A DNA stretch of 64,000 nt from positions 20,964 to 84,963 of the forward strand of contig CADASF010000006.1 of assembly GCA_902790465.1 (NCBI GenBank), read 5' to 3'. Below, piece after piece: positions 7,966 through 16,295 of the stretch. The stretch is from an uncultured bacterium (GTDB taxonomy: Bacteria; Vulcanimicrobiota; CADAWZ01). The notes under the pieces are model-generated. The model was not told the DNA's origin, did not search any database, and saw only the letters and a program-made list of their open reading frames with translations. Position numbers and translations under genes: made by a program. Numbering within the stretch: position 1 is the stretch's first letter; every line of letters begins with the position of its first letter.

Positions 7966-9252
7966 GTGAATTTAAAAAGGTTTACCGTACGAGAAGAATA
8001 TTTTGGCTCTCTTATTTATGATTTGGAGAAAAAAGATTATATTCCGTTTGATGAAGAAGCAACATTAATTTTTAAAAAAACTGCTGAAGGTCAAGCTTTA
8101 TCAGATATATATTCCAAATATTTAAGTAACAAATCTGAACAAAACTTCAAAACATTTATAAATCTATGTAAATCAATAGGTTTATTAAATGACAATGATG
8201 TTTTCGATGGAGTTTTTATTAATAGGCAAAATATTGATGAAAAACAAAAATGTTTATCAGCTCCATTAAAAGTACATCTACAAGTAACCAATGAATGTCC
8301 TTTAAAGTGCAGACATTGTAGTCAATCAAGCAGAGAACCAAGAGAAAATGAATTGACATTTGAACAGATATCTCATTTAATTTCTGAATTATCTGAAATA
8401 GGCACTAAGGAGATATGTTTTTCAGGTGGAGACCCTTTCTGTAGAGAAGATTTTATAAATATTGTAAATATAGCTGTCAGAAGAGGTCTTTCTGTTTCAA
8501 TTTCTTGTTCAGGATTGTTTGTAAGCAGAGCAATTGCGAAGAAAATAGCTGAATTGGATATAAAACAGATAAAAGTGAGTTTTGATGGTTCTTCTGAAAA
8601 ATCTTATGACTATTTTAGAGGAAAAGGTACATATAGAAGAGCAATCAGGGGTATAAAAACAATAAGAGAAATGTTCAAATGCAAACTTGTTCTTCATTCT
8701 GTCATAATGAAGCCAAATATTGGAGAACTTTTAAGTTTGTTTAGAGCTATTCAAAAGTTGGAAGCTGATGAATGGACTATTGATTTTTTCAGACAGATAG
8801 GAAGTGCTTCTACACATAAAAATTTTGCTTTGCAACCCGAAGATATAAATCTTGTACGAAGAACTGTTAAAAAATTTTCTGAAACATCAGAGATGAAAAT
8901 AAAGATTCCATCTCTTCCTGAAATTAGTTCTAAAATTTCAATATATAGCAATTTTGGCTGTCCTGCAGGTAATATATATTGTTATATTAATTCATCAGGA
9001 TTTGTAAAGCCATGTGGATTTATGTCTGATTCAACATTTGCAGGTAACATAAAAAATGATTCATTGCAAAATATTTGGTTAAATTCAAAGTTATTTTCTG
9101 ATATGCGTGCTTCTCTAGGTGTTGACAAATGTAGAAACTGTGGATTTTATAAATCCTGTAGAGGTGGTTGTAGAGCTAGAGCAACAGAAATTGGAAAAAA
9201 TATTGAAGTAAATGATCCGTTCTGCTTTATAGCTACTTCAGAAGAAAAATAG
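7966..9252 (+). CDS. Radical SAM/SPASM protein with N-terminal PqqD/RRE-like domain
   Basis: CPLKCRHC (CxxxCxxC), SGGDP, SPASM cysteines CPAG..PC..CRNC..CRGGCRA..DPFC; N-terminus VREEYFGSLIYD resembles MftB-type RRE. Confidence 0.88.
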   Translation: MNLKRFTVREEYFGSLIYDLEKKDYIPFDEEATLIFKKTAEGQALSDIYSKYLSNKSEQNFKTFINLCKSIGLLNDNDVFDGVFINRQNIDEKQKCLSAPLKVHLQVTNECPLKCRHCSQSSREPRENELTFEQISHLISELSEIGTKEICFSGGDPFCREDFINIVNIAVRRGLSVSISCSGLFVSRAIAKKIAELDIKQIKVSFDGSSEKSYDYFRGKGTYRRAIRGIKTIREMFKCKLVLHSVIMKPNIGELLSLFRAIQKLEADEWTIDFFRQIGSASTHKNFALQPEDINLVRRTVKKFSETSEMKIKIPSLPEISSKISIYSNFGCPAGNIYCYINSSGFVKPCGFMSDSTFAGNIKNDSLQNIWLNSKLFSDMRASLGVDKCRNCGFYKSCRGGCRARATEIGKNIEVNDPFCFIATSEEK

Positions 9253-9276
9253 AAAAACCACTTGGTGAAAAAAAAT

Positions 9277-9528
9277 ATGAATTCAAATGTTAAAAGAAGA
9301 GCATTGGAACCTAAAAATATGTTTTGTTCAATGTTAAAGAAAAAAGTTTCAGTGCTTGTTGAATATGATGATTATAAAAATAGAAATAACAAAGGATTTC
9401 CAGGAACATATTACTGTGAAAATATAATTTCATGCTATGGTGCAGGTAAAAGATGTAGATATAGTGGGATAAGTCCTTTGTATCCAGATCCGTTAATTCC
9501 AGAAGAGTTTTCAGAAGAAGACAGATAA
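9277..9528 (+). CDS. Small four-cysteine hypothetical protein
   Basis: ORF 9262..9528; ATG 9277 after GGTGA; FCSM...YCENIISCYGAGKRC. Confidence 0.7.
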   Translation: MNSNVKRRALEPKNMFCSMLKKKVSVLVEYDDYKNRNNKGFPGTYYCENIISCYGAGKRCRYSGISPLYPDPLIPEEFSEEDR

Positions 9529-9552
9529 ATTTCTAAATTTAGGAGAAATTAT

Positions 9553-10134
9553 ATGAGTAATATTTCAAAACTATCAGTTATACTATTGGTATTCTTTTCT
9601 TTTATTTTATGTGGTTGTAATTCTCCTGAAAAAAATAATAACGATAATAAAAATACCACAACAAATAAAGTTTCTAAAAAAGAGAAAAAGCAATATTATT
9701 ATACAAATAGCACTGTGGGGTATAAAATTCCAATAACTTCATCTTGGAAAATAGAGGAAGTACCTAATACTGATATTTTTTTAGTAAATAAAGATGGCAC
9801 TTTTACCCCTGAGCCTTCTGTCAATGTAGTTACTGTCAAGGCAAATAAATATGAACTTTGGGATAAAAAAGCTCAAAAAAAACTAAAAGATGAAATAGAT
9901 AAAAATCTTGTTACTGCCTCAGAAAAAGAAGTTACATTGGCAGGACAACATGCATATAATATTGTGTATGGACTTGAAAATAAAGCTGTTTCAATAATAG
10001 TAAATCAAACATATCTATTTTACAATGGATATTTTATGGTTATAACTTGTTCTTCAAGAGAATCTGAATATAATAGATTTGAAGAAATATTTAATGATTT
10101 TATTGAAAAAATAGACTTCACTGAAGCTAAATAG
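9553..10134 (+). CDS. Lipoprotein, PsbP/DcrB-like domain
   Basis: Lipobox ILCGC; GYKIPITSSW, EVTLAGQHAY, YNRFEEIF pattern of PsbP-like fold. Confidence 0.7.
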   Translation: MSNISKLSVILLVFFSFILCGCNSPEKNNNDNKNTTTNKVSKKEKKQYYYTNSTVGYKIPITSSWKIEEVPNTDIFLVNKDGTFTPEPSVNVVTVKANKYELWDKKAQKKLKDEIDKNLVTASEKEVTLAGQHAYNIVYGLENKAVSIIVNQTYLFYNGYFMVITCSSRESEYNRFEEIFNDFIEKIDFTEAK

Positions 10135-10144
10135 GATATAAAAA

Positions 10145-10780
10145 ATGGAAAAATTAAATGAAATAACAGAGAAAATATCATCGAAATTTACTGGTATAAC
10201 AAATGCAAGAGATGAAATTTTACAACTTCAAAGAGAAGTAATAAGATGTGCATCTCTATCAATAAGAGCAACACATCGTGGAGAATTTGAAAAAGCTAAA
10301 GAGATATTGGCAAATGCTGATAATATGATAGATGGCAAAAGAGAAATTTTTTCAGCATATCCTGAATTATATTATGCTGGTTATTTTCTTGATGCCATGA
10401 AAGAACTCGCAGAGGCTAGGATAACTCTTGCCTTAATAAAAGGGGAAGATATACCAGATCCAGATGAAATCAAATGTGAATATTCTTCTTATGTAAATGG
10501 TATGGGTGAAGCAATAGGTGAATTGAGAAGATATGTCCTCGACAAGATAAGACATGAATCATTTGATGGCGGAGACGAAGTTCTCGATCGTATGGAAGAA
10601 TTATATTGTGTTTTGACATCTCTCGATTTTCCTGATGCAATAACAAGAGGACTCAGAAGAACTGCAGACATAGCTCGCTCGATAATAGAAAAGACAAGAG
10701 GAGATTTGACATTAAATATAGCACAAAAAAGATTATCTGAAAAAATCGATTCTGTCGTTTCAATAACAAAAGAAAAATAA
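10145..10780 (+). CDS. Translin/TRAX family protein
   Basis: SIRATHRG, KELAEA, YVNGMGEAIGELRR, LRRTAD motifs. Confidence 0.82.
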   Translation: MEKLNEITEKISSKFTGITNARDEILQLQREVIRCASLSIRATHRGEFEKAKEILANADNMIDGKREIFSAYPELYYAGYFLDAMKELAEARITLALIKGEDIPDPDEIKCEYSSYVNGMGEAIGELRRYVLDKIRHESFDGGDEVLDRMEELYCVLTSLDFPDAITRGLRRTADIARSIIEKTRGDLTLNIAQKRLSEKIDSVVSITKEK

Positions 10781-10782
10781 TT

Positions 10783-11697
10783 ATGGATATAGATTCTTTC
10801 GTTGTTGATGAAAATTTTGTTGGAAAAAGAATAGATGTATTTTTGGCAGAAGTTACAGAAAATTCGAGAAGCTATATTCAAAAAAGTATATCTTCAGAGC
10901 TTGTAAAACTCAATTCAAAAGTAATATCGAATTGTTCAACAAAATTAAAATTAGGCGATATAATAGAAATACAAGAGCAGGAATTGCAAAAAGATATAGC
11001 AGAACCTGAAAATATTCCTATTGATATTATATATCAGGATTCTGATTTGGTAATTATAAATAAGCCAAGAGGTATGGCTGTACATCCTGGAGCAGGTAGA
11101 TATAATGGAACATTGGTTAATGCAATTCTCTACCACATAAAAGATCTCTCTGGGATAGGTGGTACATTACGACCTGGAATTGTCCATCGACTTGATATGA
11201 ATACATCTGGTATTATTTTAATAGCCAAAAACGACAAAACCCATGATTATTTATCACATCAATTTGAAAATAGATTGATACAAAAAGAATATTTTGCTAT
11301 TGTTCATGGAAAACTTGACCATGGATTGAGGCAAATTGTGGCTCCCATTGCAAGAAATCCTTATAATAAATTGAAAATGGCAGTAAAAGAAGGGGGAAAA
11401 TACTCAGAAACTCTTTTTACTCCACTCGATGTATTTAGATCGTTTTCTTATATAAAAGTACAACCTAAAACAGGAAGAACACACCAAATAAGAGTTCACC
11501 TTTCTTATATAGGTTATCCTATAATGGGAGATCTTTTATACGGAGCTCCAAAAAATAAATATGGCATAGAAGTTCAAATGCTTCATGCTGGTTCTATAAA
11601 ATTTACACATCCAACTTTAAAAAAAGAAATGAAATTTGAAGTTGAATGTCCACAAGATATGAAAAACATTCTCGAAGATTTAAAAAAAGAAAAATAA
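10783..11697 (+). CDS. rluD: RluA-family pseudouridine synthase (RluD-like)
   Basis: S4 domain, INKPRGMAVHP, RPGIVHRLD, TGRTHQIRVH. Confidence 0.9.
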   Translation: MDIDSFVVDENFVGKRIDVFLAEVTENSRSYIQKSISSELVKLNSKVISNCSTKLKLGDIIEIQEQELQKDIAEPENIPIDIIYQDSDLVIINKPRGMAVHPGAGRYNGTLVNAILYHIKDLSGIGGTLRPGIVHRLDMNTSGIILIAKNDKTHDYLSHQFENRLIQKEYFAIVHGKLDHGLRQIVAPIARNPYNKLKMAVKEGGKYSETLFTPLDVFRSFSYIKVQPKTGRTHQIRVHLSYIGYPIMGDLLYGAPKNKYGIEVQMLHAGSIKFTHPTLKKEMKFEVECPQDMKNILEDLKKEK

Positions 11698-11710
11698 TGG
11701 AGGCGTTAAT

Positions 11711-13654
11711 ATGGAAGAAGAATTGGATAATGAAAAAATATTGATGTGTCAAAAATGCAAGGCTGTTGTTGCTATAAATTCTGTTTCTGATGATGTAAAT
11801 CTCACTTGTTGTGGAGAACAAATGATTCCAGTTAACACCGTAGAAGAAATAGAAAATGAGTTTTTAAAATGCAAGGAATGTGGTACTGTTATATGTGTAG
11901 AAGGTTCAGAGCCTGAAGATGGTTCAACTTGCGAATTTACCTGTTGTGATAAGGTAATGGAGTCATGTTCTCCTTTAGATGAAGAGAGAGATGAAGATCA
12001 GATTGTTTTAGTTTGTACAGAAAAAAATACAGTTGTTTCTGTTGTAAGACTTGGTAAAAAAGGCAAAAAATTAAATATCAAATGTTCTGGTATAAAAATG
12101 GAGACAATGAGTGAAGATGATGACATTGAAGAATATGAAGATATATTCTTAAAATGTGAAAAATGTGGAACAGGTATTTTTGTAAATGAAATGCCAATAG
12201 ATGATCAAGATTATTCATTTACTTGTTGTGATCAAGAAATGGTAGAATATACCCCTGAAGATGATGTATGTACATGTGGTTGTGAAACAGAACATATACT
12301 TGTTGAGCCAAAATTAAATGTAGTTGTTTCTGTTCTTGAAGGTGGAGAAAATTGCAGTATCAAATGTAATGGCAATCAACTTATTTCAATAAATGAAACT
12401 GCTTCGTTGGTTTGTAAAAAGTGTGGAATGAATATTTCTGTAATAAATAATGGTGACTTTTTCAAAGAAAATAGAGAATATAATATCTATTGTTGTGGTG
12501 AAAAAATGGAAATAGAAGAACCTCAAAAAGAAATAGAACAAAATAAAGAAGTCCATGAACATCATGAACATGGATGCTGTTGTTGTCATGACCACTCGCA
12601 AGCAGAAGATATAGATGATTTTGACGATGATTTGATATTTTTATATTGTCCAAAATGCCACAAAAGAGTAACCGTAGCAGAGGAACCTAAAAATGGAATA
12701 ATTGATGTTAAATGTTGCGGTGAAAAAATGGTAAATCTTGATGAAGTACAATCTTACACAGGTTATGTTTTTGAATGTAAAAAATGTGGAATAAAAATTT
12801 CAGTCGAAGAAGATTGCTCATGTTTTACAGATGATAAAGAACATGGATTTACTTGTTGTGGTGAAAAAATGGAAATAATTGACATTCCTGATCCAGAAAG
12901 TTGCTCAGGTGATTGTTGTTCTTGTTGTGGCTGTGATGATGAAGCCGAAGAAGAGCATGGCTGTTGTGAAGGTGGCTGTTGTTCATTTGATAATGATGAA
13001 CCTGAAGAGAAAGGGCATGGTTGCTGTGAAGGTGGCTGTTGCTCATTTGATAATGATGAGCCTGAAGATGAAGAAGATTGTTGTTCTTGCGGTTGTGAAG
13101 AAGACAAAGAGTTTTTGGTCTGTACAAAATGCAAAAGGGTTGTATCAGTAATATCACCTTGCAATGATGAAAAGTGTGAAGGTGTTAAATGTTGTGGTGA
13201 AAAAATGCAAAGTTTATCATCACTCAAAGATAATTCAGGTAAATTTTTTAAATGCAAAAAATGTGGAACTGAATACTATATCGATGCTGATTCAATGTAT
13301 AAACACATAGAAGATTATAAAAATATAATCTGTTGTGGAGAAGAAGCAGTTGAAATAGAAAAGGAAGATTCAGAAAATTTTGATGAAACTGCTCCAGATG
13401 GAATTTCATATTTCTGTACAGAATGTGAAAGACTTGTAGTTGTATTTGATGAAAAAGAAGATAAACCACAACCTATCTGTTGTGGCAAAAAGATGGTTGA
13501 TATCAATGAAGTAGAGGAAAGTGAAGGAGAGATGTATGTCTGCAAAAAATGTGGACTTAAACTCATAATAGAAAATCACTGTCTCTGTGGAGTTGCAGAT
13601 GAGCCATGTCAAATGATATGTTGTGGAACTCCGATGAAAATCGTCAAAAAATAG
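11711..13654 (+). CDS. Cys-rich acidic protein with 12 desulforedoxin-like CxxC...CCG..M modules
   Basis: Repeated CKKCG...CCGEKM-type units; GGAGG RBS; His/Cys-rich linkers. Confidence 0.85.
   Translation: MEEELDNEKILMCQKCKAVVAINSVSDDVNLTCCGEQMIPVNTVEEIENEFLKCKECGTVICVEGSEPEDGSTCEFTCCDKVMESCSPLDEERDEDQIVLVCTEKNTVVSVVRLGKKGKKLNIKCSGIKMETMSEDDDIEEYEDIFLKCEKCGTGIFVNEMPIDDQDYSFTCCDQEMVEYTPEDDVCTCGCETEHILVEPKLNVVVSVLEGGENCSIKCNGNQLISINETASLVCKKCGMNISVINNGDFFKENREYNIYCCGEKMEIEEPQKEIEQNKEVHEHHEHGCCCCHDHSQAEDIDDFDDDLIFLYCPKCHKRVTVAEEPKNGIIDVKCCGEKMVNLDEVQSYTGYVFECKKCGIKISVEEDCSCFTDDKEHGFTCCGEKMEIIDIPDPESCSGDCCSCCGCDDEAEEEHGCCEGGCCSFDNDEPEEKGHGCCEGGCCSFDNDEPEDEEDCCSCGCEEDKEFLVCTKCKRVVSVISPCNDEKCEGVKCCGEKMQSLSSLKDNSGKFFKCKKCGTEYYIDADSMYKHIEDYKNIICCGEEAVEIEKEDSENFDETAPDGISYFCTECERLVVVFDEKEDKPQPICCGKKMVDINEVEESEGEMYVCKKCGLKLIIENHCLCGVADEPCQMICCGTPMKIVKK
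12956..13065 (+). repeat. 60-bp coding tandem duplication
   Basis: HGCCEGGCCSFDNDEPE occurs twice. Confidence 0.85.
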
Positions 13655-13664
13655 AAAATAAAAT

Positions 13665-15119
13665 ATGAAATTCGTAATGATTGAAACGGCTGGGCATGTC
13701 GATCATGGAAAGACTTCGCTTGTCCAAGCCGTTTCTAAAAATAATACAGATACACTTCCTGAAGAAAAGAAAAGAGGTATGACCATAGAGACTGGTTTTA
13801 CCTCTTTTAAATTAAATGAAGAAATAACTGCCGTTATTGCAGATGTACCAGGGCATGAAAATTTTATAAGTAATATGCTTATGGGAAGTTGTTTTGCAGA
13901 TATTGTCTATCTTTTGATTGACTCTAAAGAAGGTATAATGCCTCAAACAATAGAGCATTTAAAATTGATTTCACATCTATCACCTAATGCCACAATAATT
14001 GCAATAATTTCAAAAATTGATTTAATTGACCATGAAAGATTAAAAGAATTAAAAGATGAAATTTATAATTTTTTAGTCAAGGAAAAAATCAAAAATTTTT
14101 ATATACAATATTTTTCTGCTATTTCAAAAAGTGGACTTGAAGAAATACTTGATTTAACAAGAAAAATTGCAGTTTCAATAGATAGAAAACAAGACTTTAG
14201 ACCCTTTAGAATGTCGATAGCAAGAGTTTTTTCTTTAAAAGGAATAGGGACAGTTATAACAGGATATCCAATTTCAGGTGAAGTAAATCTAAATTCTAAA
14301 CTTGAATTACTTCCTTTCAAAAAAAGTTGTACAATAAAAAATATACAGATTGCAGGAAATAATGTAAAAAATGCCTCTATAGGTTCTACAATAGCATTAA
14401 ATTTAAGAAATATATCGAAGGAAAATGTTAGGGTAGGAGATACTATTGCAGAGCAGAAGTCTTTTGAACTAAAGATAAAAGCAGTTGCAGATATAAAAAT
14501 AGATAATTCTGATGAATTCAATTCAGGAAAATATATATTTTTTTCAGGAACATTTAAAGATATTGTAAAGATAAAATTTTTAAATGATTCTAAAAAAGAA
14601 TGTACAATATTTTTTAAAGAAAATGTTATATGTGAAGAAGGGGATAAATTTATTTTAAGGACAATAAATCCTCAAAAAACTATAGGATTTGGAACGATAA
14701 CAAAAACTTTTATAAAAAATACAGAAAAAGCAGAAAAAATAAAAAATAATAATAAATTAGAAGATTCAATAAGAAATAAATTTATAAAAGTATTGAAAAA
14801 ATATTCAAATAGTGGAATTGCTTTGGGAAATCTCGAAAAAGAAATAACCATGACTAAAAATAAGTTCTTAAGTTCTATAAAATTATTAGAAAAAGAAAAG
14901 TTATTAAAAATATTTAATAACTTTGTATTATTAAAATCTGATTATGAGGATATAAAAAATAAATTTATTTTATTTCTTAATAAAAGGAAAGTATGTGGTT
15001 TAAATGATATTAGAGAATTGAGTAATGGAGGCAGACATTTTTTGATATCACTTTTGGAAGAATTTGATAGAGATGGAATTACTTTGAGAACTGAAAAAGG
15101 AAGAATTTTAAAAAAATAA
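13665..15119 (+). CDS. selB: Selenocysteine-specific elongation factor SelB (short form)
   Basis: TAGHVDHGKT, EEKKRGMTI, DVPGHE, MPQTIEHL, GIGTVITG; C-terminal winged helix LLEEFDRDGITLR. Confidence 0.82.
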   Translation: MKFVMIETAGHVDHGKTSLVQAVSKNNTDTLPEEKKRGMTIETGFTSFKLNEEITAVIADVPGHENFISNMLMGSCFADIVYLLIDSKEGIMPQTIEHLKLISHLSPNATIIAIISKIDLIDHERLKELKDEIYNFLVKEKIKNFYIQYFSAISKSGLEEILDLTRKIAVSIDRKQDFRPFRMSIARVFSLKGIGTVITGYPISGEVNLNSKLELLPFKKSCTIKNIQIAGNNVKNASIGSTIALNLRNISKENVRVGDTIAEQKSFELKIKAVADIKIDNSDEFNSGKYIFFSGTFKDIVKIKFLNDSKKECTIFFKENVICEEGDKFILRTINPQKTIGFGTITKTFIKNTEKAEKIKNNNKLEDSIRNKFIKVLKKYSNSGIALGNLEKEITMTKNKFLSSIKLLEKEKLLKIFNNFVLLKSDYEDIKNKFILFLNKRKVCGLNDIRELSNGGRHFLISLLEEFDRDGITLRTEKGRILKK

Positions 15120-15160: not shown

Positions 15161-15239
15161 ATTTTTTTTTATATTTTTTTGATATTATAATTTATAATAT
15201 AATCAGAATAAAAATGATTTGAATTTGGAGGAATTAAAT

Positions 15240-16295
15240 ATGGCTTACGGATTGAATTTAATTCAAGCTGGCGGTGCTTGTGCAGCAGGTGGAATGAATA
15301 TTGGTTCACAAATCAACAGCAGTGGTGGCGGATTTGGTTTAGGATTAATTGGAAATGGCGGTGCTTGTGCTCCAACAGGAATGAATATTGGTACACAAAT
15401 TAATGGTGGAACAAATGCACAGAATATAAATGGTGGTTCAAACGGATTCGACCTTTCATCTATGCTTGGCGGAGTATCCTCATTTACTCCTTCTGCAGAT
15501 ATTATGTCCATGGCTGGAGATATGGGTAATACAATCCAGAGTACAACCCAACAAATGATGACCAACCTTCTCGGTGGTATGGGTGGCGGAATGGATATGA
15601 GTTCACTCGGTCTCGGTGGAATGCCAGGATTTGGCGGAATGCAAGGAATGCAGGGAATGCAAGGTAGTGGATTCAATGGTCAGTGTGGTCAGCCTACAAT
15701 GTATGGCATGCTCCAGATGATGATGAAAATGATGGAAATGATGGCTATGATGATCATGATGAACATGATGAATCAGATGTCTCAAGATATGGGTAATATG
15801 ATGGGCAACATGATGGGCGGAGGTCCTGGAGCAGGCGGTTGTGGTGCCTGTGGCGGAGTTGGCGGTCCTAATGGTGCTCAGCAAGCAGGCGGTTCATCAG
15901 GTTCAGCAACAGTAGATCTTGCAAGAAAATATTTAGGTCAGACAACACATGATATCAAAGGTCTCAATAACCTTGATAAATCAATCGGTTACAACCTCAA
16001 CTGTGCAAACTTCGTAAGTGCTTGCTTACAGCAGACAGGAAGACTTCAAGGTCACTACAATGGTTGTAAAGGTCTTGAACAAGCTCTAAAGAGCCAAGGT
16101 TGGAGACAGGTTCCAGCAAATCAGGCTCAGCCAGGTGATGTATGGTTCAATGCAAAGAGAGGACATACAGAACTCGTAGAAAAAGCTGGAAATCCACCTA
16201 CATTGATTGGTTCAAACAATGGTGGCGACAGCATTCAAGAAGTCACCGAAGATAGAGGAAGCGGAAGAGGCGGAGTCTTCTATCACAAAGATTAG
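15240..16295 (+). CDS. Gly/Met-rich protein with C-terminal NlpC/P60-like (papain-fold) amidase domain
   Basis: ATG 15240 after GGAGG; LARKYLG, NCANFVSACL, PGDV, GHTEL (Cys-His dyad). Confidence 0.8.
   Translation: MAYGLNLIQAGGACAAGGMNIGSQINSSGGGFGLGLIGNGGACAPTGMNIGTQINGGTNAQNINGGSNGFDLSSMLGGVSSFTPSADIMSMAGDMGNTIQSTTQQMMTNLLGGMGGGMDMSSLGLGGMPGFGGMQGMQGMQGSGFNGQCGQPTMYGMLQMMMKMMEMMAMMIMMNMMNQMSQDMGNMMGNMMGGGPGAGGCGACGGVGGPNGAQQAGGSSGSATVDLARKYLGQTTHDIKGLNNLDKSIGYNLNCANFVSACLQQTGRLQGHYNGCKGLEQALKSQGWRQVPANQAQPGDVWFNAKRGHTELVEKAGNPPTLIGSNNGGDSIQEVTEDRGSGRGGVFYHKD

Follow-up and report, generated by a model that had tools for sequence, protein, structure and literature searches.

The window, a stretch of 64,000 nucleotides from the genome of an uncultured bacterium, carries a gene for an acidic, cysteine-rich protein that lies between genes for a pseudouridine synthase and a selenocysteine elongation factor (Table 1). 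With 152 Asp and Glu residues the 72-kDa protein has a net charge of about -88, it lacks a basic tail, and its cysteine count is the highest among the 2110 long ORFs of the source genome. Contigs of RNA libraries from four studies align near-identically to parts of the gene and three RNA-library contigs span the junction with rluD, but such libraries can contain DNA, and the contigs need not reflect expression of the gene or its co-transcription with rluD. An Rfam search of the 64-kb window and of the loci of two relatives returned no match, no tRNA was found in the window and a promoter scan was uninformative (64 found versus 49 expected). A horizontal origin was considered and rejected because the GC3 of the gene (0.17) is close to that of the whole genome (0.18) and orthologues occur throughout the order.

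Table 1. Features of the poly-desulforedoxin-fold locus (positions in the window).
Feature	Position	Strand	Basis or remark
Poly-desulforedoxin-fold protein gene	11711..13654	+	647 aa, 79 Cys, 13 His, pI 4.3
GGAGG ribosome-binding-site-like motif	11699..11703	+	sequence; 7 nt 5' of ATG
Pair 1: A1 (C13/C16/C33/C34) and B1 (C54/C57/C78/C79), both intact	11726..11965	+	pattern and pair profile
Pair 2: A2 degenerate (only C102 and C125 kept), B2 intact	11993..12244	+	alignment and pair profile
Pair 3: A3 degenerate (no CxxC; C219 kept; CTCGC precedes), B3 intact	12296..12514	+	alignment and pair profile
Pair 4: A4 and B4 intact; B4 with two extra loop cysteines	12626..12880	+	pair profile
Pair 5: A5 (two loop cysteines) and B5, both intact	13100..13351	+	pair profile
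Pair 6: A6 and B6 (three loop cysteines) intact; modelled pair	13400..13645	+	profile and model
His/Cys-rich linker motif HEHHEHGCCCCHDH (residues 282-295)	12554..12595	+	inside predicted disordered residues 271-306
Long Cys/acidic linker, residues 394-464, predicted disordered	12890..13102	+	contains 60-bp tandem repeat
RluA/RluD-family pseudouridine synthase	10783..11697	+	13 nt upstream; conserved among close relatives only
selB, selenocysteine elongation factor	13665..15119	+	TIGR00475 above cut-off; 10 nt 3' of gene

Tandem units and their pairing

The original prediction of twelve CxxC...CC modules, two of them degenerate, was confirmed by pattern counting, alignment and shuffling. Ten of the units are intact (CxxC-x16..22-CC) and two are degenerate, and together they are arranged as six pairs of an A and a B unit. 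The CxxC motifs of the intact units start at residues 13, 54, 149, 235, 313, 356, 471, 515, 569 and 611 and the spacers that separate them from the CC motifs are, from the N to the C terminus, 16, 20, 19, 22, 18, 22, 19, 22, 17 and 22 residues long. The strict unit pattern matched the protein 10 times; among 2000 shuffled versions, 1992 gave no match and 8 gave one. The degenerate units (CTEKN...KCSG and VEPKL...KCNG) could be aligned with the ten intact ones. Besides the ten Cys4 sites, 39 cysteines are found together with 13 histidines in the loops and linkers, and 4 of the 10 intact units have extra loop cysteines.

A pair profile was built from 16 pairs chosen as intact, and all eight ligand positions are invariant in these 16 selected pairs. 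This profile detected exactly six pairs within the gene (E 6e-31 to 2e-9) and nothing convincing across the rest of the source genome, where the sole other match had an E value of 0.03. A-type and B-type units are distinct, the latter having CxxCG and a spacer of mostly 22 residues, and both degenerate units are of the A type. In each of the four intact pairs 21 residues separate the CC of A from the CxxC of B, and in two-unit relatives 18-21 residues do so; between neighbouring pairs the corresponding distances are 28, 52 and 89 residues. The profile and the fixed spacing thus bear out the organisation as six pairs. From the fixed spacing we infer that the single chain of each A+B pair may reproduce the desulforedoxin dimer. 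Such packing would account for the retention of two A units that have lost ligands. The pTM of 0.58 for the predicted model of pair 6 is compatible with it, but the structure matches of this model span one unit, not the pair; a complex prediction with unit A6, unit B6 and two zinc ions scored 0.25 (mark 0.32) and was counted neither for nor against the dimer.

Two of the five linkers between pairs are long and rich in Cys and His and the other three are short and acidic. The motifs that had been quoted as metallothionein-like, HEHHEHGCCCCHDH and a twofold HGCCEGGCC, are both present, but such a character applies to only two of the five linkers. HGCCEGGCC was doubled by a recent 60-bp tandem duplication at 12936-13068, and the sequence around the other motif differs among orthologues. 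Across orthologues the long linkers keep their Cys/His/acid composition and not their sequence, and their lengths range from 32 to about 100 residues. Compared with the relative G001 their dN/dS values are 1.44 and 0.53, which are rough values from short windows.

Predicted fold of the units

Searched as a whole, the protein matched no Pfam or NCBIfam family above cut-off. Although the units had been described as desulforedoxin, none of them passed the curated cut-off of the Desulfoferrod_N model PF06397 (23 bits; that of TIGR00319 is 36 bits): the best single unit scored 14.9 bits, and weak matches were obtained for 4 of the 12 units and for three of four scanned pairs but not for the whole protein. 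The set of four cysteine ligands is complete in 10 of the 12 units. According to PMC3116461 and PMC11980386 the canonical desulforedoxin spacing is CxxC-x15-CC, and none of the ten intact units has this 15-residue spacer since all have 16-22. Single units also gave scattered weak zinc-ribbon matches.

When the pair profile was compared with PDB sequences the top match was desulforedoxin (E 0.013). The predicted model of pair 6 (pLDDT 83.6) was then compared with known structures. Its six best Foldseek rows were all desulforedoxin or desulfoferrodoxin, with a TM-score of 0.89 on the target for 1dxg at an E value of 0.14 and no row at E 0.001. VIA-align likewise placed desulforedoxin first with a middling Z of 5.7 (35 of 36 residues aligned, rmsd 1.1 A), the runner-up row having a Z of 3.9, and zinc-ribbon structures ranked below desulforedoxin in both searches. 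The full-length model has a low pLDDT (58.8) and shows the same strand pattern in all twelve units; it leaves residues 271-306 and 394-464 disordered, and a Foldseek search with it returned only meaningless immunoglobulin-like rows. The desulforedoxin fold is therefore supported by the PDB sequence match and by both structure comparisons of the predicted pair. The spacers of 16-22 residues and the HMM scores below cut-off argue for a long-loop variant and not canonical desulforedoxin. Judged by their sequences and models, the units are homologues of desulforedoxin that belong to a long-loop subfamily and are not members by strict definition.

In agreement with the original prediction the protein contains no superoxide reductase (SOR) domain, the catalytic His4Cys domain (PF01880) having no match in the 647-aa protein or in the source genome. 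No metallothionein family matched the protein above cut-off, the MymT model (E 0.01) being far below it, and 647 residues with predicted folded units do not make the small, largely unstructured chain of a metallothionein.

Distribution, copy number and selection

The gene was found in all seven genomes of the order, that is, orthologues are present in 6 of the 6 other genomes. These relatives are recorded as Candidatus Xenobia and their sources include rumen and horse faeces. Three genomes, those of the source genus, carry six pairs, three genomes of other genera in the same family carry three pairs and one genome of the second family of the order carries one pair only. Among 201 sampled genomes from the phylum just two others matched, one with a single unit and one with an ordinary SOR. 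A HMMER profile scan of 1.84 billion representatives gave 47 matches, four of them (655, 350, 304 and 288 aa) at E < 1e-30; the remaining matches examined were proteins of one to four units, fragments and chance zinc-ribbon matches, and 13 of the 37 profile matches scanned pass PF06397. A search for longer proteins led to 8 matches, all from the same family and none above 678 aa. Longer versions of canonical four-unit arrays (P0020 type) were absent from 292 candidates, which is weak evidence.

In a tree of the pairs, from which the rows P0012_pair1 and P0013_pair1 were disregarded as spurious overlapping matches, pair 4 clusters with the first pair of the six-unit orthologues (support 97/91), whereas the three N-terminal pairs that were added fall into a single, weakly supported group (88/88). 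This grouping suggests that one pair was copied repeatedly. Across the order the array has grown from one to three to six pairs. Relative to G001 the dN/dS of the whole gene is 0.22; in short windows that give rough values it is 0.03-0.35 for the intact units, 0.20 for the degenerate A2 and 0.18 for A3. These ratios indicate that the units, A2 and A3 included, are under purifying selection.

Gene neighbourhood

The most widely kept neighbour of the gene is selB. It follows directly on the 3' side in four of the seven genomes (the source genome G000, G001, G002 and G003), one ORF further on in G005, and on the same strand 6.5 kb away in G006; in G004 the gene is followed by an unrelated gene and not by selB. 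In the loci fetched from G005 and G006, selB is the sole gene that maps to the source contig (one among 11 other ORFs in the first locus and among 13 in the second). The genes selA, selD and tRNA-Sec are present in the five genomes tested, and selA, selD and selC are unlinked to the poly-desulforedoxin-fold gene. The upstream neighbours differ among genera.

The SelB proteins themselves differ in length, with 484 aa in the source genome, 484 in G001 and 490 in G003 versus 632-652 in G005 and G006; the short source SelB retains the last winged-helix domain and has seemingly lost part of the C-terminal region. Two selB genes that share 34% identity are present in G006 (C20:170366-172413 and C25:16892-18754), one beside tRNA-Sec and the other near the two-unit desulforedoxin-fold gene, the latter scoring nearer to the selB of the family. 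A 5'-nucleotidase gene beside selB in G006 (L055:2893-4689) has its best source-genome match beside tRNA-Sec (G000:C71:14890-16855), a placement that hints at a possible ancestral selB-selC cluster. The idea of a special SelB for cysteine insertion was dropped as the genome has one selB, one tRNA-Sec (UCA) and one ordinary tRNA-Cys, and a home-made scan of the genome for selenoprotein genes gave shadow frames only, the two candidates that were checked having proved not real.

Elsewhere in the window, positions 15219-16295 encode a protein rich in Gly, Met and Gln whose C-terminal part weakly matches CHAP/amidase, and G001 carries two similar genes there. Positions 7966-10780 hold, on the same strand and with short gaps, radical SAM/SPASM, 88-aa Cys-containing ORF, PsbP-like lipoprotein and translin-like genes, an order that is conserved in G001 and largely in G003.

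Distant relatives with long-loop or tandem units

A metagenome scan gave 25 loci, of which 22 were examined after three repeats of L070 had been left out. They comprise six SOR-type genes (L092 unconfirmed) and 16 genes of one or two free-standing units, which represent about 12 different contexts. In two of these roughly 12 non-SOR contexts a long-loop relative sits directly upstream of a metal transporter, cbiMNQO (L085/L086) or mntP (L078/L079), and thioredoxin- and reductase-like genes adjoin one distant single-unit gene (L077). None of the 22 loci, many of them on short contigs, has selB beside the desulforedoxin-type gene. A long-loop unit with extra cysteines heads true SORs at L070 and L081, with a profile match of 90.7%.

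In these two SORs (L070:7980-8378 and L081:98-463) the loop of the N-terminal desulforedoxin domain has a CxCxxC-type insert, and the L070 gene lies after a Fur-family gene. At L086:7950-8478, and also at L085, cbiMNQO and a cation-efflux gene are directly preceded by two long-loop genes, one of two units and one of a single unit, neither of which has a Pfam or NCBIfam match. One profile match, P0021, is fused to a FeoB-associated domain, and in P0022 a two-unit domain is joined to a STAS domain. Many one- or two-unit relatives (L068, L078, L080, L087, L091; P0012-P0016) have Lys/Ala-rich tails, which we take to recall those of histone H1. P0020 and P0024 are canonical four-unit arrays of 195 aa with a similar end tail (F.FQ.GG), possibly a carrier-type terminus.

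Comparison with known proteins

The closest known system is desulforedoxin (Desulfovibrio gigas Dx, 1dxg/1cfw; PF06397; TIGR00319), with which the units share the CxxC...CC ligands, the CCGxxM ending and the predicted fold. Desulforedoxin, however, has a 15-residue spacer and is a homodimer of 36 residues, whereas here the spacers have 16-22 residues, 4 of the 10 intact units have extra loop cysteines, and twelve units of two types, all below the Pfam cut-off, are joined in one chain. The centre I domain of 2Fe-SOR (desulfoferrodoxin) is alike in fold (Foldseek ranks 2-6) and heads the L070 and L081 SORs in a long-loop version, but the catalytic SOR domain is absent from this protein and was not found in the genome. 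Tandem units without SOR also occur in two- and four-unit proteins retrieved with the pair profile (P0019, P0023, P0028, P0020, P0024); those examined have at most four units in 77-195 residues and no long Cys/His linkers, and some end in a tail that is missing from the 647-aa protein. Metallothioneins are Cys-rich like the linkers described here, with their predicted disorder, CC and CxC motifs and His clusters; in contrast to metallothioneins, most cysteines of this acidic, 647-residue protein lie in beta units predicted to be folded. Polyferredoxins carry tandem small iron-sulfur modules in one chain, as does this array, but here the module is a mononuclear Cys4 site and not [4Fe-4S], there is no hydrogenase or dehydrogenase operon and the chain has long flexible breaks.

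The architecture had not been recognised in the original prediction, and indeed the twelve-unit arrangement was not found in Pfam, NCBIfam or the PDB. No description of an array of twelve or more units was found in the literature searched, which covered titles and the opening of abstracts of, in the main, openly accessible papers. We conclude that this is a real and conserved gene whose desulforedoxin-kind architecture, for which we found no description, is confined to one order, and whose function has to be inferred. The module is old and it is the twelve-unit chain that is undescribed in the literature searched. The natural series of 1, 2, 6 and 12 units makes the role of desulforedoxin-type sites without an attached SOR testable, and the search revealed a widespread subfamily with long loops and extra cysteines, most of which escapes the Pfam model.

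Iron and oxygen-defence genes

Ferritin was found in three of the seven genomes of the order and SOR in the same three, which are high-completeness relatives with shorter arrays. Neither matched in the three 12-unit genomes (98, 97 and 89% complete) or in G004 (69% complete), and the PF00210 match of the source genome reads as rubrerythrin. Fe/Mn superoxide dismutase is present in one of the seven genomes and both rubredoxin and rubrerythrin in all seven. When the cysteines that lie outside intact units are counted, degenerate units included, the 12-unit proteins have 28-30, that of G004 has 16 and those of the three ferritin-bearing genomes have 7, 9 and 0. This relation of ferritin to array length represents one or two events among related drafts and is a lead, not a test.

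Possible functions

We give about an even chance to a cytoplasmic thiolate store or buffer for a divalent metal, iron and/or zinc. Each intact unit would bind one metal ion through its four cysteines, making ten sites, and the remaining 39 cysteines and 13 histidines would add looser, metallothionein-like ones. Reduction and oxidation of the thiols would drive metal uptake or release, and capacity would scale with copy number, the largest arrays being found in the genus without detected ferritin. Among the functions originally proposed (metal store, redox buffer, electron wire), a metal store or buffer fits best and a wire fits worst because ligands are lost at two sites and the two long linkers are predicted to be disordered and vary in length; the wire is accordingly unlikely. 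The fold basis of the store is weakened by the lack of a Foldseek row at E 0.001 and by the middling Z of 5.7. The reading also draws on linkers that keep their composition and not their sequence, and on the distant relatives next to metal transporters or fused to a FeoB-associated domain. Such transporters adjoin the gene in only two of the roughly 12 non-SOR contexts, and none lies beside it at the loci of the seven genomes. A general loss of oxygen-defence genes explains the ferritin pattern as well, because SOR was lost in the same genomes, and the conserved selB neighbour is left unexplained. Ferritin far surpasses in capacity the ten, or perhaps as many as twenty-five, ions that this 72-kDa chain would hold. 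If the protein is a store, an uncultured gut lineage manages iron or zinc without ferritin.

A redox capacitor or electron carrier, in which the intact sites would cycle between Fe3+ and Fe2+ and supply some ten stored electrons to rubrerythrin or further enzymes of oxygen defence, much like a polyferredoxin chain made of desulforedoxin units, appears unlikely. The nearest solved fold is an iron-Cys4 redox centre, which in SOR (centre I) titrates at about -120 to +60 mV according to PMC11980386. The long-loop unit is also the N-terminal domain of the true SORs L070 and L081, all seven genomes encode rubredoxin and rubrerythrin, and the single-unit gene of L077 has thioredoxin- and reductase-like neighbours. 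The loci of the seven order genomes, however, show no redox-enzyme neighbour, and searches of the 12-unit genus gave no SOR, which is the textbook partner. The loss of ligands at two sites tells against this role, predicted disordered linkers of 32 to about 100 residues are ill suited to a wire, and Cys/His linkers would be superfluous for electron transfer.

Two other readings are drawn from gene neighbours only. We regard as doubtful a structural zinc scaffold, in which the metal would serve folding only, the protein would act in translation or RNA handling by binding to RNA or to other proteins, and the extra copies would reflect easy internal duplication with little added function; if true, the array would be a curiosity of one small order. 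The RNA-handling neighbours rluD, mnmG/gidA, tex and selB speak for it, as do the Lys-rich N-terminal tails of two-unit relatives, the scattered weak zinc-ribbon matches of single units and the retention of degenerate units without ligands. Yet the 12-unit protein, at a net charge of about -88, has no basic tail, purifying selection acts on the added pairs, whose dN/dS is 0.03-0.35, the upstream neighbours are not constant between genera and zinc-ribbon structures score lower than desulforedoxin. Very doubtful, in our estimate, is a selenium helper, a thiol-rich protein made together with SelB that would hold selenite or selenide, or buffer precipitating metals, for selenocysteine synthesis. 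In its favour, selB lies directly 3' in G000-G003 and further along in G005 and G006, where selB is the only gene shared with the source contig, the G006 copy near the array gene scores closer to the selB of the family than the second copy, and selA, selD and tRNA-Sec were found in the five genomes tested. But G004 has the gene with an unrelated downstream neighbour, no selB was seen at the 22 metagenome loci (many on short contigs), selA, selD and selC are unlinked, no orthologue match has an in-frame TGA, and inherited gene order among seven related genomes accounts for the selB link without any function.

Starting from the metal store that we prefer, a bolder version would be that gut Xenobia swapped ferritin for a new iron store, a thiolate chain of desulforedoxin fold with Cys/His linkers that doubled in length as ferritin and SOR were lost. 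With no mineral core, such a chain would bind ferrous iron one ion at a time and release it on oxidation; we hold this to be decidedly improbable. Two further very Cys-rich ORFs with signal-peptide-like starts were observed in the source genome (G000:C54:3300-4500 and G000:C12:37862-38476), the former with a long CKDCKDCKKA-type repeat and one frame change in the assembly.
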